This document shows positions 24,836 to 52,335 of a stretch of 64,000 nucleotides of DNA, one piece after another. Made by a program: the position numbers and the translations under genes. The stretch comes from Clostridia bacterium (GTDB lineage: Bacteria > Actinomycetota > Actinomycetes > Mycobacteriales > Mycobacteriaceae). The stretch is taken from assembly GCA_963623015.1 (NCBI GenBank), contig CAVFKS010000002.1, positions 7 through 64,006 on the forward strand, in the 5' to 3' direction. The notes below the pieces were generated by a model. It saw only the letters and a program-made list of their open reading frames with translations, made no database searches and was not told the origin of the DNA. How positions within the stretch are numbered: position 1 is the first letter of the stretch; each line of letters opens with the position of its first letter.

Positions 24836-24854
24836 TAAGGTAACCCTTGCCTAA
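24836..24854. promoter_or_regulatory. DtxR box
   Basis: TAAGGTAACCCTTGCCTAA versus consensus TWAGGTWAGSCTWACCTWA, upstream of the iron ABC operon. Confidence 0.85.
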
Positions 24855-38902: not shown

Positions 38903-38950
38903 TTAGCTTAGCATAGCCTATGCAAGCAATATTAGGGTTGTGTACCCTAA
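38903..38950. promoter_or_regulatory. Two DtxR boxes upstream of htaA
   Basis: TTAGCTTAGCATAGCCTAT (38903-38921) and TTAGGGTTGTGTACCCTAA (38932-38950). Confidence 0.8.
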
Positions 38951-39028
38951 GTCCAGTTTGTATACCCTAACTCCGACTGCAGCACTTCGTCTCCTGCAGG
39001 TTCTCGATCTCTTATGAGGAGGAATCCC

Positions 39029-40921
39029 ATGAGTCTCCGTTCCTTTAGCAGCAAGCTGGGCCGGGTGATGGCGGCCGCCGCCCTCGCCGCCCTCCCCCTG
39101 GTAGCCGTCGCCTCGCCCGCGGCCACCCCGCGGGCTGCAGCCGCCGAAAACTGTGCCTGGGACTGGGGCGTGAAGCAGTCTTATCGCAGCTACATCCGCG
39201 GCCCCGTGGCCAAGGGCAAATGGACCCTGGACAGCGTTGGGTTCAACGGCAGCGAGACCGGCACGGACGGCGCGTTCCGCTTTACCCCGGGCAAGGCCGC
39301 GGTGGAAGGGGATACCGTGACCATCCCATTTGGCGGTACGGTGCACTTTACCGGCCACAACTACGGCGGCCCGGACCTGCTGGACATGACCATCTCCGAC
39401 TGGAAGGTCCAGGCCTCCGGCAACCGGGCGGCCATCGTGGTGGACTACGTCTCCTATGAGTCGGACATGCAGGACAAGACCGAGCGCGGCGAAAAGATCA
39501 CGGGTGACAACGTGGTCATCGCCGGCATCGATCTCAGCCGCGCGGTCGATGCCGGGGCGGGGACCGTGGATCTGTCCGGCCCGGTCACCCTCACCGACGC
39601 CGGCCACCAGCTGTTTTTGGCTTATGACGCCGGCACGCAGATGGACCCCTCCCGCGGAACCGTTAAGACCGACGGCAGCTGCGGCGGCGGCTCGAACTCT
39701 GGTTCCGGTTCCGGGACTAAGCAGCTCAAGCAGATCACCGGCGAGTTCAGCGGCTACAACAAGGAGGCCATGGGCATCCTGAAAGAAACCAACGACACCC
39801 TCAACGGCGTGACCACCTTCATGGGTAACACCGAGGCTTTCCTGGACCAGCTGGACTCCTTCCGCGACCGCACCGGCACCGGCACCAAGTCCGGCTCGGC
39901 GTCCGGCACGACCTCGGGATCCGGTACTAGCGCTGGGTCTACGTCCGGCTCGACGTCGGGGTCTACCTCGGGAGCTAACTCTGGCTCGGGGTCCGGGGCC
40001 AATTCCGGATCGAATTCCGGCTCCAATGGTGGCTCTACCGCGGGTGCGGCCTCCGGCGGGGGCACCAACTCTGGTGCTGCGGGCGGTACTGCCCGCGCCG
40101 CTGCGGGTGGCGACGAAAAGTGTGAGGCCACCGGCGTGCAGTCGGCATCGGCAGCCTGGGGGATCAAGAAATCCTTCCAGTCTTATATCACCGGCTCCAT
40201 TGCCAAGGGCAAGTGGACCTTAGACGGCATGGGCTATGAGGGCGGCCAGTTCCGCTTCACCGGCGCCGGCGGCGACGTCGACCCGGCCGCGGGCGCCGGC
40301 TCCCTGCGCTATGGCGGCTCGGTGCACTTTACCGGCCACAACGGCGTGCTCGACCTGAATATTTCGGATGTGGAGATCCGCTTCGGCGGCGGTGGCGGCG
40401 CGCTATACGCCACGGTGCGCTCCTCCGACATGGAGGGCAACCGCCACGACTTCGGCCACACCCAGATTGCCGACCTGCGCTTCAACCAGCTCGACGTCAG
40501 CGATTCCCGCGTGGCCGGGTCCGCCCAAGTATTCCTGTCCGGCACCGGCGCGCAGGCCTTTGCGAGCTTCTACGATGCCGGCATCGAGCTCGACCCGCTG
40601 ACCTTCGAGGCCGCCCTGGGCGGTGCGGGCGACTGCGGTGGCGTCGGCGGGGCATCGGCAGGCTCAGCCGGCGGGGCGGGGGCTTCCGGCTCGGGCTCCG
40701 GGGCATCGGCAGGCTCAGCCGGGGCAGAAGGCGCCGGTTCGGACACCTCGACCACCGGGTATGAAAGCGGCGCGGACAAGTTCAAGATTCACTCGGCCGC
40801 GGCCAGCGGCCCGGGCGGCGGGCTGGGCGAGGATGCCACCACCTGGCTGCTGCTCATCGTGGGCGGGCTCATCGTCGCCGGCGGCTCCCTGGGCCGCGTC
40901 GTCATGGGCAACCCGGCCTAA
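39029..40921 (+). CDS. htaA: Surface heme-binding protein with two HtaA (CR) domains
   Basis: Signal peptide; two WG(V/I)K.S(Y/F).SYI...FTGHN...LD domains; Gly/Ser linkers; C-terminal TM. Confidence 0.92.
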   Translation: MSLRSFSSKLGRVMAAAALAALPLVAVASPAATPRAAAAENCAWDWGVKQSYRSYIRGPVAKGKWTLDSVGFNGSETGTDGAFRFTPGKAAVEGDTVTIPFGGTVHFTGHNYGGPDLLDMTISDWKVQASGNRAAIVVDYVSYESDMQDKTERGEKITGDNVVIAGIDLSRAVDAGAGTVDLSGPVTLTDAGHQLFLAYDAGTQMDPSRGTVKTDGSCGGGSNSGSGSGTKQLKQITGEFSGYNKEAMGILKETNDTLNGVTTFMGNTEAFLDQLDSFRDRTGTGTKSGSASGTTSGSGTSAGSTSGSTSGSTSGANSGSGSGANSGSNSGSNGGSTAGAASGGGTNSGAAGGTARAAAGGDEKCEATGVQSASAAWGIKKSFQSYITGSIAKGKWTLDGMGYEGGQFRFTGAGGDVDPAAGAGSLRYGGSVHFTGHNGVLDLNISDVEIRFGGGGGALYATVRSSDMEGNRHDFGHTQIADLRFNQLDVSDSRVAGSAQVFLSGTGAQAFASFYDAGIELDPLTFEAALGGAGDCGGVGGASAGSAGGAGASGSGSGASAGSAGAEGAGSDTSTTGYESGADKFKIHSAAASGPGGGLGEDATTWLLLIVGGLIVAGGSLGRVVMGNPA

Positions 40922-40981
40922 GGCCCGGGCGAGGCAGCCGAGGCGAAAAAGTAGGACACACGAGCGTAGGAGAACAGTGAG

Positions 40982-42052
40982 ATGAAGAGGATAGCCCAGG
41001 GCTTGGCCGCGATTGTGTGCGCGCTGAGCATTGCCAGCTGCGGGGTGCAAGGCGCCTATGACGCCGGCAACTCCAACGAGCAGCTGCAGGAGGAACTCGC
41101 CCACGCCGACGCGGGCGATCCGCGCGGGTTTACTGGGGTCAGCCACGTCGACGACTTCGACGAGGTCGTGCCGGTGGCGCAAGACCCGCAGCCCCAGCTG
41201 CCGGTCACGCTCACCGACGCCGACGGCTACGACGTCAGCGTGGACACGGTTGACCGCATCCTGGCGCTCGACATCTACGGCACCTACACCAAGAGCCTGG
41301 AAGGCCTGGGGCTGACCGACAACATCGTCGGCCGCACGGTCTCCTCGACGGAAAAGGTCTTGGCCGACCGCCCCGTGGTCACCCAGGGCGGCCACAACAT
41401 CAACGTCGAGGCCGTGCTGGAGTTGCGTCCCGACCTGGTCATCGTTGACCACTCCATCGGCCCGCGCGATGCCATCGATCAGATCCGCGCCGCCGGCGTG
41501 ACCACCGTGGTCATGGAGCCCAAGCGCACCATCGACGCGGTGGCCGAGGACATCACCACGCTGGCCGCCGTGGTGGGCCTGCCCGCCGAAGGCGAGAAAC
41601 TCGCGGAGCGCTCCACCCGCGAGATCGCCGGCGCCAAGGAGACCATCGCGTCCCTGGTACCCGGCGAGCCGATGCGGATGGCTTTCCTCTACGCCCGCGG
41701 CAACGGCGGTGTCTTCTTCGTCATGGGGGAGGGCACCGGCGCCAAGGACCTCATCGAGGGCGTGGGCGGCATCGACTTAGGCACCGAATACAACCTGTCC
41801 TACGCCGAGCCCGCCAACGCCGAGGCGCTGGCCCGGATCAACCCGGAGATCATCGTCATGATGACCGACGGCCTGGAGTCCACCGGCGGCATCGACGGGC
41901 TCATGCAGCGGCCCGGCGTGGCCCAGACCACGGCGGGGCAGAAGCAGCGCATCATCACCATCCCGGACGGGCAGTCGCTGGCCTTTGGCCCGCTGACCGG
42001 CCAGACCCTCTTGCGACTAGCGCAGGCCATCTATGACCCAGACAATGCTTAA
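40982..42052 (+). CDS. hmuT: Heme ABC transporter substrate-binding lipoprotein
   Basis: Lipobox IASC; TQGGHNINVE and FLYARG heme-ligand motifs. Confidence 0.93.
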   Translation: MKRIAQGLAAIVCALSIASCGVQGAYDAGNSNEQLQEELAHADAGDPRGFTGVSHVDDFDEVVPVAQDPQPQLPVTLTDADGYDVSVDTVDRILALDIYGTYTKSLEGLGLTDNIVGRTVSSTEKVLADRPVVTQGGHNINVEAVLELRPDLVIVDHSIGPRDAIDQIRAAGVTTVVMEPKRTIDAVAEDITTLAAVVGLPAEGEKLAERSTREIAGAKETIASLVPGEPMRMAFLYARGNGGVFFVMGEGTGAKDLIEGVGGIDLGTEYNLSYAEPANAEALARINPEIIVMMTDGLESTGGIDGLMQRPGVAQTTAGQKQRIITIPDGQSLAFGPLTGQTLLRLAQAIYDPDNA

Positions 42053-43112
42053 AGCCTCCGCCGCCCCCGGCGCCCGCAGCGCCCGCGATGTCTTCGCGCG
42101 CCGCCGGGCCCTGCGCGTGGGCGTATTTACGGCCCTGCTCATCCTCCTCGTCTTTGCCTCGCTGCTATCGCTGGCGCTGGGCCAGTACTACGTCGGCCTA
42201 GCCGACCTGGTGCGCATCCTGGTGGCCGGGCCCGGCCAGGCGGAGCTGGCCGCCAACGTGGTCTGGCAGATCCGCCTGCCCCGTATCCTGCTCGGCTTCG
42301 TCGTCGGCGCTTGCCTGGGCGTGGCCGGCACCCTGATGCAGGCGGTCTTCGCCAACCCGCTGGCCGAGCCCTCCGTCATCGGCGTGACCTCGGGTGCGGG
42401 CGTGGGCGCGGCCGTGGCCATCGTGTTCAACCTGAGCTTCCTGGGCACCTTCACCGTGCCCTTCGCCGCCTTCCTCACCGCGGTGGCGGTCACGGTGGTC
42501 ATCTACCAGCTCGCCCGATCCCGGGGGCAGGTGGCCGTGGTCAACCTGATTCTGACCGGCATCGCCATAAACGCGGTGTGCACCGCCATCATCTCCTTTA
42601 TGACCTACCTGGCGCCCACCGCCAACCGGGAGCAGATCATCTTCTGGCAGATGGGCTCCCTCAACGGCTCCCAGTGGAAGCACGTGTGGGTAGTCGCCCC
42701 CATCGCGGTCGTCGGCATCGCCGTGGCCCTGCGGCTCGGCGCTAGCCTCGACGTACTCGCGCTGGGGGATAGGGCCGCCGGCCACACCGGCGTCAACGTC
42801 GCCCGCCTGCGCATCCTGGCGATTGCGGCATCCGTGGTGCTAACGGCTGCGGCCGTGGCGTTTGCCGGCCTCATCGGCTTTGTGGGCCTAATCGTCCCCC
42901 ACCTGCTGCGCACGCTCGTCGGACCCGAAAACCAGGTGCTGCTACCGGCCTCGGCGCTGGCGGGCGGGGTGCTCATCGCGCTGGCCGATGTCGCCGCGCG
43001 CACGCTCATCCCCTTCGCGGACCTGCCCATTGGCATCTTCACCGCGCTAGTGGGCGGGCCGACCTTCTTCATCCTTCTGCGCCGCATGATGCGAAAGGGG
43101 CTGCACGCATGA
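42033..43112 (+). CDS. hmuU: Heme ABC transporter permease
   Basis: IRLPRI, NPLAEPSVIGVTSGA, IGFVGLIVPH. Confidence 0.93.
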   Translation: MTQTMLKASAAPGARSARDVFARRRALRVGVFTALLILLVFASLLSLALGQYYVGLADLVRILVAGPGQAELAANVVWQIRLPRILLGFVVGACLGVAGTLMQAVFANPLAEPSVIGVTSGAGVGAAVAIVFNLSFLGTFTVPFAAFLTAVAVTVVIYQLARSRGQVAVVNLILTGIAINAVCTAIISFMTYLAPTANREQIIFWQMGSLNGSQWKHVWVVAPIAVVGIAVALRLGASLDVLALGDRAAGHTGVNVARLRILAIAASVVLTAAAVAFAGLIGFVGLIVPHLLRTLVGPENQVLLPASALAGGVLIALADVAARTLIPFADLPIGIFTALVGGPTFFILLRRMMRKGLHA

Positions 43113-43939
43113 TCGATGCGACACCGACCATCGACATCCAGGGCCTAGAGGTCAGCCTCGGCGGGACCAAGCTGCTGCGCGATGTGAGCTTTAGTGCCGC
43201 GCCGGGCCAGGTCACCGGGCTAATCGGGCACAATGGCGCGGGCAAATCCACGCTGCTGGCCGCCGCGGCCGGGGATCTTCCGCGCGCCGCCGGCACGGTC
43301 ACCATCGCCGGCCATGACCCGGCTAACACCAGCCCGCTGGCGATGGCGCGTCTGCGCGCGGTCATGCTCCAGGACGTCACCGTCTCCTTCCAATTTCTGG
43401 TGCGCGACGTCGTGGCTTTTGGCCGGCGGCCCTGGGCCGGCACGGCGCGCGAGGAGCTTGACGATGCCATCGTGGATGCGGCCCTGGCCGCCGCCGACGT
43501 GGCCCACCTGGCCGGGCGCGATATCGCCACGCTCTCCGGCGGGGAGCGCGCCCGCGTGGCCTTGGCCCGCGTGATTGCGCAGCAGACCCCGGCGATGTTC
43601 CTCGACGAGCCCACCGCGGCCCTCGACATCCGCCACCAGGAGGTGGTTCTGCGCTTGGTGCGCACCATCGCCCGGGAGGCGAACGTGGCCGTCGTGGTGG
43701 TCCTCCACGATCTCAACGCGGCCGCCGCCTACTGCGACCACATCGTGTGCCTCTCCGGCGGAACCGTGGCCGCCGCCGGCCCGGTGCCCGCGGTCTACAC
43801 GGAGGAGATCCTCTCCGACGTCTACGACTGGCCCGTCTCCGTCGCCCGCACCGATGGCGCCATCACCGTCCACCCGGCCCGCCGCCCCGACTCGGCCGCG
43901 GCCACCGGCTTCATCGACCTCATCCGCACCCACCCCTAG
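43109..43939 (+). CDS. hmuV: Heme ABC transporter ATPase
   Basis: GHNGAGKS, LSGGERARVALARV, LDEPT, LHDLN. Confidence 0.93.
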   Translation: MIDATPTIDIQGLEVSLGGTKLLRDVSFSAAPGQVTGLIGHNGAGKSTLLAAAAGDLPRAAGTVTIAGHDPANTSPLAMARLRAVMLQDVTVSFQFLVRDVVAFGRRPWAGTAREELDDAIVDAALAAADVAHLAGRDIATLSGGERARVALARVIAQQTPAMFLDEPTAALDIRHQEVVLRLVRTIAREANVAVVVVLHDLNAAAAYCDHIVCLSGGTVAAAGPVPAVYTEEILSDVYDWPVSVARTDGAITVHPARRPDSAAATGFIDLIRTHP

Positions 43940-43991
43940 GCCAGCCCTCGGCCTCAATCCCTACCAACACCACAACACCAAGGAGTCCTTC

Positions 43992-44318
43992 ATGAACACC
44001 TTCACTCGCCGCGCCACCGCCGTCACCGTCGCCCTGTCGCTGACCACCGCCGCAGTCCCTGCCACCACGGCCGCGCCTGCCCCCGCTGTCCTCGCAGCCG
44101 GAGCCGACACCGCGCAGCCCGCCGATCACGAGCAGCCCGCCGATCAGTCGACCGGGCAGCCGGCCGAGCAGCCTGCCGAGGAGGGCTCGTCGTTTGCGAA
44201 GAGCTGGAATATTGTGCTCGCGGTATTCACCCTGACCTCGCTGTTTAGCGTTATCGGTGCGACCATCTATTCCTCCGGCGCGCTCGACGGCCTCCTGGGC
44301 CACCTGCCGCGGGGGTAA
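43992..44318 (+). CDS. Small exported protein: signal peptide, QPA(D/E) repeats, GSS plus hydrophobic anchor
   Basis: AAGGAG RBS, MNTFTRRATAV... signal peptide, 108 aa. Confidence 0.7.
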   Translation: MNTFTRRATAVTVALSLTTAAVPATTAAPAPAVLAAGADTAQPADHEQPADQSTGQPAEQPAEEGSSFAKSWNIVLAVFTLTSLFSVIGATIYSSGALDGLLGHLPRG

Positions 44319-44336
44319 CTTCACGCCCCACCCTTG

Positions 44337-44375
44337 AAAGGTAAGGTAAACCTTTTTAAGGTTATGGTTGCCTAT
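44337..44375. promoter_or_regulatory. Tandem DtxR boxes
   Basis: AAAGGTAAGGTAAACCTTT (44337-44355) and TAAGGTTATGGTTGCCTAT (44357-44375). Confidence 0.8.
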
Positions 44376-44462
44376 CTTAACTGGGGTCGGGCGCTGCGCC
44401 CGGATTCCGTCTCTAAACGATTGGCACTTCCTCGGCTTAACCCTTCTCAAGGAGAAAATCAC

Positions 44463-45458
44463 ATGAAGACTCGCTCTACCGCCGGACTGGCCTTCGGCGT
44501 TTCCCTGGCCCTGGCCGGCAGCCTCGCGGTAGTCCCCGCGGTCTCCGCGGAGCCCACCGAGCCCGCTGAGCCGCAGACCTGCAAGAACCCGGGGGTGGAA
44601 ATCGTCTCCGGTACCGTCGACTGGGGCGTGAAGACCTCCTGGCGCTCCTACATCACGGGGAATATCGCTAAGGGCCAGTGGACGATTGGCGGCGCGGTGA
44701 AGGAAGGCCCGCAGGCCAAGAATGCCAAGGACTTCCAGTTCCTCTTCGAGGTCGACCCGGCCAAGTCGAACATTAAGGTCGACAAGGACGGCAACGTCAC
44801 CGAGGCCAAGATTCAGACCAAGGATTCCTCCATCGAGTTCGAGGGTCACAAGGGCGCGTTGTACTCCAAGATGCAGTCCCCGTACTTTGAGATTCAGGGC
44901 AACACCGTCCGCCCGGGCGTGACGTACGTGGCCTACTACGTCGAGGGCAAGGGCATGACGGAGTACACCCCGGCAGACCGCATCGAGGCCAACAAGGTCA
45001 CCGGCACCGACACCTTCGGCCAGGGCGCGGTGGAGGCCGTGACCGAGGGCGACATCATCCACCTGGAGACCCAGGGGATGAAGTACAAGCAGAAGCCGGG
45101 CACCAACTACGATCCGGAGACCAAGAAGCAGACCGTCGAGGGCATTGACCGCCTGTTCCTGGGAACCTACAACGAGAACTACCAGCCAGAGCTGGACGAT
45201 GCCTCCATCGCCCTCAAGACCCGCCAGGTGTGCAACGACGCTGCTACTCCGTCCGAGAAGCCCTCCAAGCCGTCCGAGTCCTCCAAGCCTTCTCAGCCTT
45301 CCAAGCCGGGTAAGGACCCCAATGGTTCTTCGCAGGGTAGCTTCGGCCCGATGGCCTGGATCATCCCGTTGGTGTCCGCCCTGCTCGCCCTGGGTGGCGG
45401 GTTTGCATGGCTGGCTCAGAACTTCAACATTCTGGGCAAGCTGGGTATCAAGTTCTAA
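44463..45458 (+). CDS. Single HtaA-domain surface heme-binding protein (HtaB/HtaC-like)
   Basis: Signal peptide; WGVKTSWRSYI, FEGHKGAL, FLGTY; PSK linker; GSS plus TM. Confidence 0.88.
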   Translation: MKTRSTAGLAFGVSLALAGSLAVVPAVSAEPTEPAEPQTCKNPGVEIVSGTVDWGVKTSWRSYITGNIAKGQWTIGGAVKEGPQAKNAKDFQFLFEVDPAKSNIKVDKDGNVTEAKIQTKDSSIEFEGHKGALYSKMQSPYFEIQGNTVRPGVTYVAYYVEGKGMTEYTPADRIEANKVTGTDTFGQGAVEAVTEGDIIHLETQGMKYKQKPGTNYDPETKKQTVEGIDRLFLGTYNENYQPELDDASIALKTRQVCNDAATPSEKPSKPSESSKPSQPSKPGKDPNGSSQGSFGPMAWIIPLVSALLALGGGFAWLAQNFNILGKLGIKF

Positions 45459-45572
45459 GTCTGGATAACTAGTCGCATAAATCCAGGGCCATAAGGCAAC
45501 CTCACGGCAGCTCTAGCGTTTGCTAGGGCTGCTTTGGGTTTTGGTACGGGCGGCAACCGGGACGCTGTGTGA

Positions 45573-46718
45573 TTAGGTGAGCTGTTTGAGCACCGTGCGC
45601 ACGATGGCGCGGACTCTTTTGTCCATGGGCATGTCCATGTGCAGGACTACGGCCCGGCTGTCGAAGTCCTGGACGTAGATGTTGCGCACGGTGCCATCGG
45701 GGGCATCGCCAGGCGAGAGGAAACAGGTCTCCGGGGGTACGACGATGGTGTCCTGCTTGGTGGCGATGCACGTATAGCTCACGCCCGGGACGATGTCCCC
45801 GCCGTGGTTGAGGCGCTCGATAATCTTGCTGCCCACTATCTGCTCCAGGCCGGCCTGTCCGAAATAGGAGTCGATGATCGACTGCATCACGTGCTCCTGC
45901 CGGCGGGTGCTCACCAGCGGACTGATGATGCCGCCCTGCGTGGTGCCGTGGTTCGGCGCACCTAGGCAGATGACGTGGCGAACCCGCGCCGGGTCCTGCT
46001 TGGCCACCGCGCGCGCTACCAGCCCGCCCTGCGAGTGGCCCACCAAAACCGCCTGCTCCGCGCCTAGGGCGCCCAGCACCGCCGCGACGTAGGCAGTCAC
46101 CTGATCTACAGAGTCGGGGATATGCCCGGTGGCGCGCAGGCCATAGTCCGGGGCGAAGACCGCCCAGCCATCGGCACGTAGCTCCTGGCCAAGCAGCTGC
46201 CAGGCGCCCTTGGAATCCGTGGTGCCGTGAATGAGGATCACCGGCCAGGGGTGGTCCTTGTCGGTGCGCGCGGTCCAGTCATCCTCGAAGACCCCGCGGC
46301 TCTTGAGCCGGGCGCCTAGCGGCAGCGGCGCGGTGGCTTCCGCCTCCGCGGGGTCCTGGCGGTGGTAGACCAAATCCGAAAAACTGCGGCGATCCCCGTG
46401 GAGCATCTCCGTGATCTCGTCGGCGACCTCCTCGCGTAGGGCGTTCGCCGCCGGCGGGGACGCCACCCCGAAGCGCGCCGAGTTCTGCGGGGCCTTCGCG
46501 GGGGCGGGATCTGTAGCCGGGGCATCGCCGGCGTTGGCGTCGTAGTCGGTGGTGTGGTCGGCGTCGTGGTCGGTGGTGTGGTCGGTGGTGCTTGCGGCAT
46601 CGACGGCGCCGTCTGTGTCGTCGTAGGCGACCACGGGGCGCTCGGGGTCGGGGCGCCAGAACTTCCCGAGAGCTTCGGAGACGAGGGTACGTAACTCGGA
46701 AATCGGATCTTGGGCCAT
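45573..46718 (-). CDS. Alpha/beta hydrolase (lipase class 2-like)
   Basis: PVILIHGT, GHSQGG nucleophile, GAPNHGT, D...VPP. Confidence 0.88.
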   Translation of the reverse strand: MAQDPISELRTLVSEALGKFWRPDPERPVVAYDDTDGAVDAASTTDHTTDHDADHTTDYDANAGDAPATDPAPAKAPQNSARFGVASPPAANALREEVADEITEMLHGDRRSFSDLVYHRQDPAEAEATAPLPLGARLKSRGVFEDDWTARTDKDHPWPVILIHGTTDSKGAWQLLGQELRADGWAVFAPDYGLRATGHIPDSVDQVTAYVAAVLGALGAEQAVLVGHSQGGLVARAVAKQDPARVRHVICLGAPNHGTTQGGIISPLVSTRRQEHVMQSIIDSYFGQAGLEQIVGSKIIERLNHGGDIVPGVSYTCIATKQDTIVVPPETCFLSPGDAPDGTVRNIYVQDFDSRAVVLHMDMPMDKRVRAIVRTVLKQLT

Positions 46719-46871
46719 GACCCGATACTAGCCATGGGGTGAAGCTTTGGGGTCGGGCCGGCAGCCGGGCTGGTGGGGCTGGCAGCTGCGCGGGCAGATG
46801 AGCTGCGTGAGTGAGGTGTGGCAGCCAGTAGAGGCTCATGCGCGGGCGCGAAAAACTTTTTTGGAAAGCCC

Positions 46872-46913
46872 TTGACTATCCTCCGAAAGGTGCATAAACT
46901 AAGGCTTGCCTAA
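46872..46913 (+). promoter_or_regulatory. SigA-type promoter overlapped by a DtxR box
   Basis: TTGACT(46872)-17 bp-TAAACT(46895); TAAACTAAGGCTTGCCTAA (46895-46913) matches TWAGGTWAGSCTWACCTWA at 16/19. Confidence 0.8.
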
Positions 46914-47019
46914 TCACGGGCGGTACTTCACAAAGGTTGCGCTCCACTTCCTGCGTGAGGACCGAAAGATTAGTCATGGGGAGAAGGCCCACCGGTGCGC
47001 AGCCGGTGGGCCTTCGTTA
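46907..47019 (+). ncRNA. Candidate iron (DtxR)-regulated small RNA, ~110 nt
   Basis: Own promoter; nested pairings CTAATC/GATTAG, CGGT/ACCG, CTTCAC/GTGAGG, AGG/CCT around a C/U-rich loop; 13-bp terminator stem; no credible ORF. Confidence 0.7.
46983..47019 (+). terminator. Intrinsic terminator of the candidate sRNA
   Basis: GAAGGCCCACCGG-N7-CCGGTGGGCCTTC perfect stem, then GTTAT (short U tail). Confidence 0.75.
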
Positions 47020-47033
47020 TACAATGGGGCGGC

Positions 47034-48431
47034 ATGAGCGACGCATCTGAAGCAGTGGTTTCCCTCATCGAGCACTATGATTCCGCGTGCCGCAAGGCCC
47101 GGGAAATCCTCGAGTCCGGAAACTTCGAAGACTATGGCCAGGTGACCTATCCCAAGCTCACCGTCGAGGTAAAAACCTGGAACCCCATCGACCGTTCGGA
47201 GCCCTTCGGCTATGTCGACGAGGCCGGGGTCTACTCCGCGGTGATCTCCAAGCCGCACATCATGCGCGATTACCTCGAAGAACAGCTCGAGCGCCTGACG
47301 GCCAACTACGAGTGCCGCATCACCGTCGCCCCCTCCGAGATCCGCATCCCACCCGAGTACATCCGGGGTGCAGCCCAGGTGGGCCAGCAGCGTCCGCCCC
47401 AGGTCCCGCGGCCCACGCTGGACGATGTCCACGACGCCATCATCGACGGCCACTGGGAGGCCTTCCACGATCCGCTCACTGGGGAAAAGCCGCTGTTCCA
47501 CTTCGGCCCGCAGCGCTTTGACATCGCCTGCGCGCGCATCGAGCATTACACCGGCGTCGAGGTGGACACGGTGCAGAAGTACATCCTCTTTACCAACTAC
47601 GCCATGCACACCACGGAGTTCGTCCGCTTCGGCCTGCGCGAGCTGACCCGGGAGGACTCCCGCTACACCGCGCTGGTGCTCCCCAGCGGCGAGATCCTGC
47701 ACCCGAATGACGCGGTCGACCTCGACTTGGACGAGTTAACCCTCGAGTCCCGCTTCCAGATGCCCCGTTTTGACCTGGTCACCGCCGCCGGCGATGGCAT
47801 CACGATGATCAACATCGGAGTCGGCCCCTCTAACGCGAAGACCATCACGGATTGCCTGGCGGTGCTGCGCCCCGAGGCCTGGATCATGATCGGTCACTGC
47901 GCGGGCCTGGACGGGCGCATGCGCATGGGGGATCTGATCCTGGGCAACGCTTATCAGCGCGACGATCACATCCTCAACCACCCCATCCCCGTCGACGTTC
48001 CCATCCCGGCGGTGCCGGAGGTCCAGCGCATGCTGGAGAACTCCGTGCGTGCCGTCTACGGCGAGGACCAAGAGCTCATGCGCACCGGCACGGTGTTATC
48101 CACCGGCGACCGCAACTGGGAGTGGCGCACCCCACGCGAGCTGTGGGAATGGCTGCGTGGTTCCACCGCCGTGGCCGTTGACATGGAATCGTGCATGGTG
48201 GCTGCCAATGGGTACCGCTACCGCGTGCCCTATGGCACCTTGCTGTCGGTCTCCGACCTGCCGCTGCACGCCGTGCCCAAGCTGCCGGCGGCGGCGCAGG
48301 CGTTCTATTCCAACTCCAAGGAAGCCCACGTGATGTGCGCGGTTCGTGCCGTGGAGTCGCTGGCCTCCAACCCGGAGCGCCTGCGCACCCGCAAGCTGCG
48401 GCGCACCATCGGGGAAGTGCCTTTCCGGTGA
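47034..48431 (+). CDS. amn: AMP nucleosidase
   Basis: QKYILFTNY, FQMPRFDL, NIGVGPSNAKTITDCLAVLRP, GHCAGL, DRNWE, DMES, LRTRKLR; own -10 TACAAT at 47020. Confidence 0.95.
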   Translation: MSDASEAVVSLIEHYDSACRKAREILESGNFEDYGQVTYPKLTVEVKTWNPIDRSEPFGYVDEAGVYSAVISKPHIMRDYLEEQLERLTANYECRITVAPSEIRIPPEYIRGAAQVGQQRPPQVPRPTLDDVHDAIIDGHWEAFHDPLTGEKPLFHFGPQRFDIACARIEHYTGVEVDTVQKYILFTNYAMHTTEFVRFGLRELTREDSRYTALVLPSGEILHPNDAVDLDLDELTLESRFQMPRFDLVTAAGDGITMINIGVGPSNAKTITDCLAVLRPEAWIMIGHCAGLDGRMRMGDLILGNAYQRDDHILNHPIPVDVPIPAVPEVQRMLENSVRAVYGEDQELMRTGTVLSTGDRNWEWRTPRELWEWLRGSTAVAVDMESCMVAANGYRYRVPYGTLLSVSDLPLHAVPKLPAAAQAFYSNSKEAHVMCAVRAVESLASNPERLRTRKLRRTIGEVPFR

Positions 48432-48480
48432 TCGGGAAGCGCCGTTCCGGTGATCGGGAAGCGCCGTTCCGGTGATCGGG
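48423..48480 (+). repeat. Tandem repeat, 22-bp unit TTCCGGTGATCGGGAAGCGCCG x2.6
   Basis: Units at 48423, 48445 and 48467 (partial); the first contains the amn stop codon. Confidence 0.9.
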
Positions 48481-48532
48481 CGGTATCTAGTAAACTTTGT
48501 CCAAACCTTTTTTAAACCGTGAAGGAGCCCTT

Positions 48533-49048
48533 GTGAGCCAGCCGGATTGGGTCCACCCGGACCGCGAAAACCTAACGTGGGAGACCTTCGGTGAAGCCTC
48601 CCGCTACCTCTCCCAGGCCATCGTGGATTCCGGCTGGTTCCCGGATCTCATCGTGGGCGTGGCCCGCGGCGGCCTCATCCCCGCCGGCGCCATCGGGTAT
48701 GCCATCGGCGTCAAGGAAATGGGCGCCATCAACGTGGAGTTCTACAGCGACATCGGCAAGACCCTGCCGGAGCCCATCATCTTGAACCCGCAGCTCGACA
48801 CCGACTCCCTGAAGGGCAAGAAGGTCCTCGTGGTCGACGACGTTGCAGACTCCGGCAAGACCCTGGACCTGGTGGTCAACCTGCTGGAAGAGACCGCCTC
48901 CGAGGTCAAGTCCGCGGTGATCTACACCAAGCCCACCACCATCTTTGAGCCGGACTTCTCCTGGCGCAAGACCGATCAGTGGATCAATTTCGCCTGGTCC
49001 GTCCTCCCGGTCATCACCGTCGACGGCTCCTTCAAGGAAGGCGCCTAA
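48533..49048 (+). CDS. Purine phosphoribosyltransferase (Gpt-like)
   Basis: GVARGGLIPA, VLVVDDVADSGKT PRPP-binding loop; GAAGGAG RBS before GTG. Confidence 0.9.
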   Translation: MSQPDWVHPDRENLTWETFGEASRYLSQAIVDSGWFPDLIVGVARGGLIPAGAIGYAIGVKEMGAINVEFYSDIGKTLPEPIILNPQLDTDSLKGKKVLVVDDVADSGKTLDLVVNLLEETASEVKSAVIYTKPTTIFEPDFSWRKTDQWINFAWSVLPVITVDGSFKEGA

Positions 49049-49138
49049 ACCCGGAAGCGGCCGACAGTCTCGCGGGGTGGCGCCCGCGGGCAGCGGCTCC
49101 CGTGGGCCCTGGGGCGCGGTGGCCTACAATGAACCCCC

Positions 49139-50611
49139 GTGTCTCAACAGGTCCCGGCCCCGATGGGGGTCATCGATAGTTTTCGCTTCGCCTTCTCCAG
49201 CCCCGTGCGGCTGCGCAAGGAGGTCTTTGCCGGGCTGGCGGTCTCGCTAGCCTTAATCCCAGAGGTCTTAAGCTTTTCCATCTTGGCGGGCCTCGACCCG
49301 CGGGTGGGGCTTTTTGCCTCCGTGGTGATGTGTATTTCCATCGCCTTTACCGGCGGGCGCCCGGCCATGATGTCCGCGGCCGCCGGCGCCATCGCCGTGG
49401 TCATCGCCCCGCTAGCCAAGACGCACGGGCTCGACTACGTGGTGGCCACGGTGCTGCTGGCCGGGATTTTGCAGGTGGTCATGGCCCTGCTCGGGGTGGC
49501 CAAGCTCATGCGGTTTATTCCGCGGTCGGTGATGACCGGCTTCGTCAACGCCCTGGGCGTGCTCATGTTTACCGCGCAGCTGCCGCACCTCATCGGCGTT
49601 CCCTGGCTGGTCTACCCGCTCGTGGCACTCGGCCTTATCATCATGGTGGTCTGGCCGCGGATTAATGCCGCCGTCCCGGCGCCGCTGGTGACCATCCTGC
49701 TGGTCACGGGCCTGGCGGTCATCGCCGGCTGGCAGGTCCCGGACGTGGCGGACCAGGGCGAGCTGCCCACCAGCCTGCCCGGCCTCTTCATCCCGGACGT
49801 GCCGTGGAACCTCGAGACGCTAGCGCTGATTGGCCCTTATGCGCTAGGCGTGGCCCTCGTCGGCCTGATGGAGTCCCTGCTCACAGCCAAGCTGGTCGAT
49901 GACATCACGGATACCCACTCCGATAAGACGCGCGAGTCGCTCGGCCAGGGCGTGGGCAACATCTTGTCCGCGGCCATCGGCGGCATGGGCGTGTGCGCCA
50001 TGATCGGCCAGACGATGATCGGGGTCAAAGAATCCCAGGCGCGCACCCGCCTGTCGACTTTCCTGGCGGGCCTATTCCTGCTCATCCTCATCCTGGTGCT
50101 GGGGGAGACCGTCGGCCGGATCCCGATGGCTGCGCTGGTGGCGGTGATGATCATGATCTCGATTTCCACCGTCAACTGGCATTCGGTGCGCACCATCTTC
50201 CGCATGCCCCTGTCGGAGACCGTGGTCATGCTCACCACCGTGGTGGGCACCCTGGCCACCAATAACCTGGCCATTGGCGTGGTGCTTGGCGTGGTGGCGG
50301 CCTCCATCGGGTTCGCCCGCCGCGTGGCGCACGTGGTGGCCGTGGATCTTGTCGATGACGTCTACTGGGTCAAAGGCCAGCTTTTCTTCGCCTCCTCGAA
50401 TGACCTGGTCTACGCCTTCGACTACACCCTGGACGTTGAGGAGGTGGTCATCGACTTCAGCCAGGCGCAGATCTGGGACGCCTCCACGGTGGCCACTCTC
50501 GATGCCGTGCGCGCCAAGTATGCGGATCGCGGCATCCGCGTGCAGGTGCGCGGCCTGGATCCGGGCAGCCGGGCCCGCCTGGACCGGCTGTCTGGCAACC
50601 TGGGCGAATAG
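49139..50611 (+). CDS. SulP-family anion permease with STAS domain
   Basis: LALIPEVLSFS, GGRPAMMSAAAGA, ESLLTA, GQLFFAS, IWDAS. Confidence 0.93.
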   Translation: MSQQVPAPMGVIDSFRFAFSSPVRLRKEVFAGLAVSLALIPEVLSFSILAGLDPRVGLFASVVMCISIAFTGGRPAMMSAAAGAIAVVIAPLAKTHGLDYVVATVLLAGILQVVMALLGVAKLMRFIPRSVMTGFVNALGVLMFTAQLPHLIGVPWLVYPLVALGLIIMVVWPRINAAVPAPLVTILLVTGLAVIAGWQVPDVADQGELPTSLPGLFIPDVPWNLETLALIGPYALGVALVGLMESLLTAKLVDDITDTHSDKTRESLGQGVGNILSAAIGGMGVCAMIGQTMIGVKESQARTRLSTFLAGLFLLILILVLGETVGRIPMAALVAVMIMISISTVNWHSVRTIFRMPLSETVVMLTTVVGTLATNNLAIGVVLGVVAASIGFARRVAHVVAVDLVDDVYWVKGQLFFASSNDLVYAFDYTLDVEEVVIDFSQAQIWDASTVATLDAVRAKYADRGIRVQVRGLDPGSRARLDRLSGNLGE

Positions 50612-50693
50612 GGTCCCGGGTGGGGAGTGGACCCCATCGAATGGTTGATCTTTGTGTGAGATCATTGCCTAATCGATAACGTTGCAAATAAGC

Positions 50694-50727
50694 TTAGGGC
50701 AACTTAACTTAGGTAACCTTTACTAGG
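50694..50727. promoter_or_regulatory. Overlapping DtxR-like boxes upstream of hmuO
   Basis: TTAGGGCAACTTAACTTAG (50694) and TTAGGTAACCTTTACTAGG (50709). Confidence 0.65.
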
Positions 50728-50735
50728 AGTTCACA

Positions 50736-51383
50736 ATGACCCTTGCAACGACCACGATCGAGCTGGATAGCCCGCTCTCGGCCCAGCTGCGGGAGGCCAC
50801 CCAGCAAGCCCACTCGGAGGCGGAGGGCTCGCAGTTCATGTCCCGCCTCATCGCCGGCGAGCTCAATCCGGAAGCCGTGGCCTTCTTTACTGGCCAGCTG
50901 TGGTTTATCTACGAAGCCCTGGAGCGCGCGGTGCGCAACGTGGACTGCCCGGTGGCGGATCCGCGCCTGGAGCGCAAGCTAGCGCTGGAGGCCGACCTGG
51001 CGGAGATGTACGGCGCCGACTGGCGCGACCAGGTGCGCATCCTGCCGGCCACCGCGCGCTACGTGGCCCACCTGGGGGAGCTCGATTCCCCGCACCTGGT
51101 CACCGCCCATCACTACGTGCGCTACCTGGGGGATATCTCTGGCGGGCAGGTCATTGCTGCCCGACTCGGGGCCGTCTATGGCATCGACCGCGACGCGCTC
51201 AACTTCTATCACTTCACCGCCATCGACAAGATCCCGCCTTATCGCAAGGCCTACAAGGCGGCGTTGAATGAGATGCAGCTTTCCGATGCCGCCCGCGCCG
51301 AGCTGCTCGAGGAAGCCCGCGTGGCCTTCGGGCTGAACTCTGCCGTCTTCGCGGAGATGGATGTTGAATTCCCGGCGGGTTAG
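50736..51383 (+). CDS. hmuO: Heme oxygenase
   Basis: LREATQQAHSEAE proximal His; AHHYVRYLGDISGGQVI signature. Confidence 0.95.
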   Translation: MTLATTTIELDSPLSAQLREATQQAHSEAEGSQFMSRLIAGELNPEAVAFFTGQLWFIYEALERAVRNVDCPVADPRLERKLALEADLAEMYGADWRDQVRILPATARYVAHLGELDSPHLVTAHHYVRYLGDISGGQVIAARLGAVYGIDRDALNFYHFTAIDKIPPYRKAYKAALNEMQLSDAARAELLEEARVAFGLNSAVFAEMDVEFPAG

Positions 51384-51422
51384 TAAATGTAGCCTAAGCT
51401 GCCTATACTAAGGGTGTCCTAA
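51379..51422. promoter_or_regulatory. DtxR-like boxes upstream of the HtaA-domain gene
   Basis: GTTAGTAAATGTAGCCTAA (51379) and TATACTAAGGGTGTCCTAA (51404), the latter overlapping -10 TATACT. Confidence 0.6.
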
Positions 51423-51453
51423 TTTCTGATTCCCTTGGGAAGGGGAGAACTAC

Positions 51454-52335
51454 ATGCACTCTCAGCTCTCGTGCCGCGCGGCCTCGACCGCAACGCTTAC
51501 CGCTGCCGCCGTGGCCATGGCAACGGCCATCGTTGCCCCGCAGGCGGCCGCGGCCCCGGCCGTATTGGAGTCGGGCAGCTTTGCCTGGCCGATCAAGACC
51601 TCGCTCATGCACCACCTGCAGTCCAACCCGATTGCCAAGGGCCAGATCACCCCGAGCGAGGGTGCGAGCTTCGAGGACAGTCAGTTCGTCTTCCCGGTCG
51701 ACGCCGCCGAGACCACCATCGACGCCCAGGGCAAGGGGGTCATCGAACTCGATGGCGAGGCCCACCTGCAGGCCTACCCGAAGATGGGGCCCGGTGGCGG
51801 CCTGGGACTCGATGCCCGCTACTTCGACCTCGAGGTGCGAGTGGATGGCACCAAGGCTCAGCTCGTGGGCGACTACGAGGTCAAGGGCGTGCCCGGCGGC
51901 CAGGGTGCCAGCATCGATCTGCACGGCGACGACGAGGTTCTGGTGACCTTCGACTTGAGCAAGGCTGTGACCCCAGGCGCGGACGTGGCGGAGATGGACC
52001 GCGTCACCACCGCCGGCCCGGGCCTGGCAAAGTCCATGGTGCGCTACCAGGATGGCGAGCTGCTAGACGATACCGCGGTGGATCTCATCCTCGACTATGC
52101 GGACGGCCAGGCCGCCCCGAAGCCGGATGGCACGCAGATGGCCAGCTCCAAGCAGCTGTCGGCGGATCTCGGCCCGGAGAAGACCTGGGCGCTGGTGGCC
52201 GCCGGCGCGCTGGCAGTGCTGGGTGCGGCCGGCGGCGCCATCGCCTGGCTGGTGGGCCAGCTTGGGGTCAACCGGGGGCACAATTTTGGCGGGGAAATCA
52301 ACAAACTTTTGGCGGGCCTGGGCCTCCGCCTTTAG
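51454..52335 (+). CDS. Divergent single HtaA-domain surface protein
   Basis: Signal peptide; GSFAWPIKTSLMHHL, FVFPVD, LQAY...GLD, RYQDGELLDD; C-terminal TM. Confidence 0.8.
   Translation: MHSQLSCRAASTATLTAAAVAMATAIVAPQAAAAPAVLESGSFAWPIKTSLMHHLQSNPIAKGQITPSEGASFEDSQFVFPVDAAETTIDAQGKGVIELDGEAHLQAYPKMGPGGGLGLDARYFDLEVRVDGTKAQLVGDYEVKGVPGGQGASIDLHGDDEVLVTFDLSKAVTPGADVAEMDRVTTAGPGLAKSMVRYQDGELLDDTAVDLILDYADGQAAPKPDGTQMASSKQLSADLGPEKTWALVAAGALAVLGAAGGAIAWLVGQLGVNRGHNFGGEINKLLAGLGLRL

Follow-up and report, generated by a model that had tools for sequence, protein, structure and literature searches.

In the Corynebacterium genome analysed here, the region between a lipase-like gene and amn carries a compact non-coding unit (positions 46872-47020 of the window, by which we mean the whole 64,000-nucleotide stretch of DNA) made up of a promoter, a DtxR box over the start site, a long hairpin and a terminator. 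The arrangement and conservation of these parts point to a conserved, apparently undescribed non-coding gene. We think it probable that this gene, which belongs to one Corynebacterium clade, makes a small RNA that acts in trans, is repressed by DtxR and serves to spare iron. Such an RNA would act like RyhB and MrsI without detectable homology to either. The iron-sparing role is supported by comparative evidence of unusual quality for a prediction made from genome sequences.

A promoter scan places a -35 hexamer, TTGACT, at 46872-46877 and a -10 hexamer, TAAACT, at 46895-46900, both on the forward strand, and finds this TTGACT-17-TAAACT promoter (46872-46900) once against 0.2 expected from shuffles. 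Spanning the -10 and the inferred start site is a 19-bp DtxR operator (46895-46913, assigned to neither strand) that matches the consensus printed in PMC1382209 at 16 of 19 positions. Sites with at most three mismatches to this consensus number two in the 64-kb window, the other lying at 24836, and none in 100 shuffles, and the two boxes share their last 9 bp. A preliminary description of this DNA had proposed a self-contained unit between the lipase gene and amn with this promoter and this operator, and the features sit where it placed them; it also likened the operator to a box at about 51403/51404, which does share the layout but matches the consensus at only 13 of 19 positions. A DtxR-type gene is present in this genome.

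The predicted small RNA occupies 46908-47020 on the forward strand, with both ends inferred, giving a length of about 110-113 nt and a fold z-score near -4. A covariance model of it, R1, scores 53-145 bits on 29/29 loci. In the minimum free energy fold its 5' part (46910-46973, forward) forms one hairpin of 64 nt (z -2.45), with a near-invariant basal helix (46910-46915 paired with 46968-46973) and upper helices that vary among homologs with compensatory changes. All four stem pairs named in the preliminary description appear in this fold, but the hairpin is shorter than the roughly 75 nt given there. Likewise, the terminator-like hairpin that follows (46983-47020, forward; stem 46983-47015, z -7.8) is present with a stem of 14 rather than 13 bp, but its U-tail is weak and a scan of the element for terminators with a U-tract called none. 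Rfam 15 covariance models matched no family in window positions 46000-48000, giving one chance match elsewhere (E 1.6), and on six homolog loci gave a single match (E 0.72) under its gathering score. A query from one homologous locus (L037) matched 24 sequencing runs, and the four RNA runs compared with the locus are available as contigs only, which cover the whole region and its flanks evenly, as DNA would. In one of them (X9), a 57-nt contig inside the RNA reaches a depth of 52.8 against 17.5-19.8 beside it, which a segment shared among strains would also give.

The unit is flanked by a divergent alpha/beta-hydrolase (lipase-like) gene on the reverse strand (45573-46718) and by amn, encoding AMP nucleosidase, on the forward strand (47034-48431), both assigned by Pfam. 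As already proposed, amn has its own -10 hexamer after the terminator and outside the RNA gene (TACAAT, 47020-47025, forward), 8 nt before its ATG at 47034, and its transcript is probably leaderless. The surrounding region encodes HtaA, heme oxygenase and ferritin (Pfam), and from 38903 to 52335 is dense in heme and iron genes, with weaker DtxR-like boxes at about 38903, 44337/44357, 50689 and 51403 before hta, hmuO and related genes. The description of the unit as part of a heme/iron locus is thus true here, but is specific to this genome: across 35 distinct loci, the constant neighbour is the divergent hydrolase (35/35), while amn lies within the fetched flank in 21. Just past the terminator, insertions recur, with genes that differ from genome to genome (L003, L007, L032, L039, L041, L045, L049) and whose identities were judged by eye, so that this site is an insertion hotspot.

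Promoter, box, loop and stems are kept in related species. Among 46 distinct homologs, every copy has TTGAC 16-18 nt before a -10 of the form TA-N3-T, and every copy keeps the DtxR box with two or three mismatches and with its spacing to the -35 and -10 held. The upper hairpin varies in sequence and length yet stays paired: in an alignment of homologs, 17 of 31 pairs show two-sided changes, a count that none of 500 shuffles reached, and the terminator stem shows them at 8 of 12 pairs. These figures are not probabilities, since the aligned copies are relatives and their common structure was drawn up manually from folds of individual sequences. When the structure is slid along the alignment, the paired fraction drops from 91% to below 50%, with a similar result on a model-fitted alignment, in a control that is biased by the hand-set structure. 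Owing to the many gaps in the alignment, an unconstrained RNAalifold consensus failed to show the long hairpin.

BLAST returned full-length matches in 6 of 24 genomes of the genus and nothing meaningful in 16 genomes from other families. A strict sequence pattern matched once in each of 53 of 321 Corynebacterium genomes and nowhere in the control, and a covariance model, with 27 true matches among 151 genomes, added two divergent copies, so that the element is found in 55 of the 321 genomes at one copy each. A looser pattern recovered all 55 and no further convincing copy; its 15 extra matches compare with about 37 in a reversed control, and the eight inspected held no element. When a single genome per species was scanned, 40 stretches matched, and 38 of these bear the title Corynebacterium or Corynebacteriaceae; the carriers named there include C. 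striatum, C. tuberculostearicum, C. kefirresidentii, C. aurimucosum, C. macginleyi, C. flavescens and C. phocae. Two pattern matches outside Corynebacterium, which had neither promoter nor box, were rejected, as were two covariance-model matches at E of about 0.007 that are terminator look-alikes.

Trees of MiaB and SdhC from 30 genomes group all 17 sampled carriers in a single clade, which also contains one genome that has no copy, G014 (support 100/99 and 99/97). The clade holds human-, animal- and food-associated species, including common skin and nose corynebacteria. No homolog was found at 16 lipase loci of non-carriers, in five genomes outside the clade searched at relaxed settings, or in 150 genomes of the order, seven of which gave matches of at most 26 bits; since the covariance-model searches of the 151 genus and 150 order genomes scored the best 22 candidates per genome, distant homologs could be missed. 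In G014 the lipase gene and amn stand back to back (L160), with no covariance-model match between them and with a similar amn -10 and ATG. This genome probably lost the element recently and resembles a natural knockout, in which the acn, katA, sdhA and miaB sites described below are intact.

Two segments of the RNA are candidate seeds. The apical loop GCUCCAC (46941-46947, forward) is complementary to ribosome-binding sites of the form (G)UGGAG(C/U); its core GCUCCA is invariant in 24/24 aligned copies, unpaired in 23 of the 24 single folds, and costs 1.4 kcal/mol to open. Between hairpin and terminator lies the linker AGUCAUGGGG (46972-46981, extendable to 46968-46983, forward), complementary to start regions reading CCCC-AUG-ACU, which is likewise invariant in 24/24 aligned copies, with one C>U variant elsewhere, and costs 2.8 kcal/mol to open. 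Our search patterns required both loop and linker, but the first BLAST matches, found without patterns, show the same conservation. The near-invariant linker, which the preliminary description missed, is the strongest candidate and appears to be the main seed, predicted to pair over start codons. The exposed CCT stretch proposed there does not stand: the CCT after the loop is an arm of a covarying stem. The broader proposal of RNA-based iron sparing agrees with all four comparative checks, namely conservation of box, loop and stems, independence from amn, matching sites in iron-protein mRNAs and no RipA found in carriers, but is amended in that the seed appears to be the G-rich linker and not only the pyrimidine loop.

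Complementarity to the linker is concentrated in iron genes of this genome. Our own gene model called 1899 genes, and the 1221 with ATG starts were ranked by exact linker complementarity across the start codon. The set of iron genes used for comparison comprised 41, of which 34 start with ATG; it was drawn up from motifs and known iron proteins when part of the matches had already been noted. On this set, matches of at least 9 nt occur in 7 of 34 iron genes against 15 of 1187 others (p=8.7e-7). By Pfam, the seven iron genes among these 22 encode SdhA, NarG, a ferredoxin, catalase, an Fe-S oxidoreductase, a serine dehydratase and a Rieske protein. When pseudo-seeds were taken from the starts of other genes, none of 1187 did as well at 9 nt and four did at 8 nt, these best ones all sharing the context CCC-ATG-AC. 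The miaB start has a 14-bp linker match that includes one G-U pair, and sites for the loop GCUCCAC occur at acn and leuC as well as at the gene for the hydrogenase small subunit. Neither leuC nor the start of acn was found in this 86%-complete assembly; where the true start should be, its aconitase contig opens with an internal fragment that is out of place (G000:C31:1-60), probably a local misassembly. The hydrogenase gene belongs to a NiFe-hydrogenase cluster (G000:C30:2734-14072), and its ribosome-binding site has an 8-nt loop match. DtxR-like boxes with three mismatches also lie ahead of sdhC (G000:C97:4408) and in the gap separating a catA-like from a Rieske gene (C74:9786), which suggests that DtxR may act on these genes directly as well as through the RNA.

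We compared target starts in 17 carriers and 12 genomes outside the clade, keeping G014 apart. A linker site is present at sdhA in 15/17 carriers and 0/12 outsiders, at katA in 10/17 carriers and 0/11 outsiders (one outsider start was not located), and at narG in both carriers that have the gene, among five searched. At acn, the median linker duplex is -21.8 kcal/mol in carriers (n=16), beyond the top 1% of starts in this genome (-18.0), against -12.4 kcal/mol in outsiders (n=12). In all 16 carriers with the acn 5' end, a loop site, TGGAGC, directly precedes the linker site; four of the 16 (L144, L147, L148, L149) have a second CCCCATG(ACT) site some 70-90 nt upstream of the start. Sites at acn are found in 9 of 13 non-carriers, and TGGAGC itself in 8 of 12 outsiders. 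Since GGAG is moreover an ordinary Shine-Dalgarno core, loop matches are weak evidence. The loop-type site GTGGAG is present at leuC in 12/14 carriers and 0/5 outsiders (20 regions fetched, one start not located). The fdx duplexes range from -13.8 to -18.9 in carriers and from -9.8 to -14.4 in outsiders, overlapping ranges from five genomes each. Among neighbouring genes in carriers, a linker-type match occurs in 1 of 168, so this start context is not a clade-wide habit. As the sampled carriers are one clade, the contrasts between genomes amount to one or two evolutionary events, as does the exclusion of RipA discussed below.

Several other candidates fared less well. The preliminary description had named ftn, sdh, acn and katA for checking, and sdhA, acn and katA have sites as described, but no linker site was found at the ftn start of this genome, and sdhC was dropped since it pairs better outside the clade: 11 of the 12 genomes there read GCCATGACTG at the sdhC start, where carriers read GTCATG (L219-L248). 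This sequence, and TGGAGC at acn outside the clade, may be ancestral or the footprint of another regulator. We also dropped folE (G000:C16:11200-11787), whose perfect 14-nt linker match is found here only and in 0/5 other carriers, and glbO, whose site is likewise private to this genome (0/5 other carriers), and mostly dropped sdaA (sites in 2/10) and ilvD (2/5). The non-iron gene serC has a match in 2/5. The picture for miaB is mixed, with a linker-type site in 3/17 carriers and a loop-type site in 4/17; the seed type appears to switch among carriers (L266-L295), and the loop-type site covers a GTG start.

These observations suggest how the element may work. When iron is present, DtxR would sit on the -10 and start site and block transcription; when iron is scarce, the RNA of about 110 nt would be made. 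Pairing would begin at the free UCAUGGGG and extend, by opening the basal helix, to 10-14 bp over the start codon. The G-rich linker is predicted to pair over the start codons of the acn, sdhA, katA, narG and fdx mRNAs, and the apical loop with the ribosome-binding sites of leuC and acn. RyhB-type small RNAs repress iron-protein mRNAs. By this analogy and from the position of the sites, we assume that translation of dispensable Fe-S and heme enzymes would stop, so that the RNA would fill the role that RipA holds in C. glutamicum and C. diphtheriae. A more ambitious account, to which we give about even odds, is that in this clade an RNA took the place of a protein within the DtxR circuit. Lacking RipA, it would have independently evolved a two-seed RNA whose G-rich main seed reads the start codon, and its targets would have converged on CCCC-AUG-ACU, that is, on Met-Thr N-termini, with loop and linker sites side by side at acn. 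The basal helix would then serve twice: the DtxR operator ends in its 5' strand, and its 3' strand lengthens the seed.

The strongest competing explanation accepts a DtxR-controlled small RNA that is not a translational repressor: its loop and linker would bind to one another or to some protein, or it would activate its targets, and the start matches would be inherited features of the clade. RNAalifold does pair loop CUCCA with linker UGGGG in 24/24 sequences, without covariation; G014 has lost the RNA but retains the sites at acn, katA and sdhA, and several target sites are not conserved. Yet the enrichment within this genome is independent of phylogeny, and a mere inheritance of the start context sits poorly with its presence in only 1 of 168 neighbouring genes. 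The loop lies at the tip of the long helix and the base of that helix adjoins the linker, and therefore, as we read the structure, loop and linker cannot pair alongside the helix, which is itself well supported by covariation. We judge this explanation unlikely. The RNA might instead be a leader, attenuator or riboswitch acting in cis on amn or another downstream gene, as the weak U-tail, which could allow read-through, and the presence of amn near 21 of 35 loci might suggest. Downstream genes differ widely, however, and are convergent in 6 of the 15 loci examined, so the element is not an amn leader, a role that the preliminary description had also thought unlikely; its clean absence from G014, which keeps amn, shows that it can be lost alone and argues the same. 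Together with the separate -10 of amn and the lack of an Rfam riboswitch match, this makes a cis-acting role very improbable.

It is equally improbable that the locus holds DNA signals only, in which case DtxR would control the divergent lipase gene from this operator, a terminator would follow, and no RNA would have a function. At 35/35 loci the sole constant neighbour is indeed the lipase gene, and a palindromic operator could serve either strand, but the promoter, kept in 46/46 copies, points away from the lipase gene, the distance from that gene to the box varies by hundreds of bases, and a covarying hairpin with an invariant loop would be left unexplained. The slimmest chance of all attaches to a small protein of 24 codons from the linker ATG at 46976. 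This ATG is invariant in 24/24 aligned copies, which pairing of its self-complementary CAUG core with target start codons would explain; no ribosome-binding site precedes it, homologs differ by single-base indels after it, and the frame crosses the terminator stem.

The closest functional counterpart in the genus is RipA, which C. glutamicum and C. diphtheriae possess as an AraC-type repressor that is itself repressed by DtxR (PMC1382209, PMC13001254). In one Corynebacterium genome (G108), the AraC protein encoded downstream of a DtxR box proved by exact look-up to be RipA, and its box is the ripA box printed in PMC1382209. With this protein as query, orthologs were called at E <1e-60, well separated from the next matches at 1e-30, and RipA was found in 48 of 321 Corynebacterium genomes and in none of the 55 carriers, where about eight would be expected if the two were independent; by these queries, 218 of the 321 genomes have neither RipA nor the element. 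katA is a RipA target. RipA, under DtxR control, represses iron enzymes, with acn, sdhCAB, nar and leuCD among its targets (PMC1382209, PMC13001254). The element would hold the same position in the circuit and share these targets; it differs in being a predicted RNA, while RipA is a protein acting on transcription and is absent, by query, from all 55 carriers.

Corynebacterium is, to our knowledge, described as lacking Hfq. The element shares with MrsI (ncRv11846; PMC6016810; bioRxiv 10.64898/2025.12.17.694866), the mycobacterial iron-sparing small RNA controlled by IdeR, a length of about 100 nt, an IdeR/DtxR-family box at the start site, a 5' hairpin with an apical loop, a terminator, a host without Hfq, and, by prediction, iron-protein targets including catalase. 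Yet the MrsI seed GGGCUG is absent from the RNA in the window, whose loop is GCUCCA in 24/24 copies; the RNA has an additional, G-rich candidate seed beyond its hairpin; and MrsI is divergent from blaI, where here a lipase-like gene (35/35) and lipase/amn synteny are found. One MrsI-like locus (L467), found in one of five genomes checked, aligns with the element no better than shuffles do (132/200 score as high) and scores 4.9 bits (E 3.8) with the covariance model. By seed, by synteny and by its dissimilarity to this one locus, the element is not a member of the MrsI family, which the main text of PMC6016810 reports from Mycobacteriaceae and Nocardiaceae with no mention of Corynebacterium; a very distant common origin may still underlie the shared layout.

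RyhB, PrrF, FsrA and IsrR are described as convergent rather than homologous iron-sparing small RNAs (PMC9410917), repressed by an iron sensor and overlapping with the predicted targets of the element at aconitase, nitrate reductase and MiaB; IsrR, too, has several separate seeds. Features of this class seen here are an iron-sensor operator over the promoter (a predicted site), an independent non-coding unit by genome context, and a conserved single-stranded seed complementary to the initiation regions of iron-protein mRNAs, though not at every such gene. The differences are that those RNAs are Fur-controlled, that no Rfam family matches the element, and that IsrR and FsrA use C-rich seeds against the Shine-Dalgarno sequence (PMC9410917), whereas the best-supported seed here is rich in G and would pair around the start codon. 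The 6C RNA of Actinobacteria is also a conserved small RNA, whose exposed loops pair with no need of a chaperone, but it is linked to the SOS response and not to iron, and the element has neither C-rich loops nor a match to it in Rfam. The preliminary description knew of no equivalent, and we found no DtxR-controlled small RNA of Corynebacterium in the literature consulted (including PMC8628891, bioRxiv 10.1101/2025.01.02.631128, PMC8247434, PMC12096840, PMC5784534 and PMC4046766), though supplements, motif lists of large surveys (e.g. PMC11109978) or subscription papers could contain the element.

A small RNA under the DtxR homolog IdeR is already known in MrsI, while Table 1 of a 2022 review (PMC9294342) lists none under DtxR itself. 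If our reading is true, iron-sparing RNA would have arisen independently once more, here with a seed that is unusual in being directed against the start codon, and with long duplexes predicted in a genus said to lack Hfq. Iron sparing in Corynebacterium has been credited to RipA, yet RipA is found in only 48 of 321 genomes; for 55 others, the element described here would offer a concrete answer.
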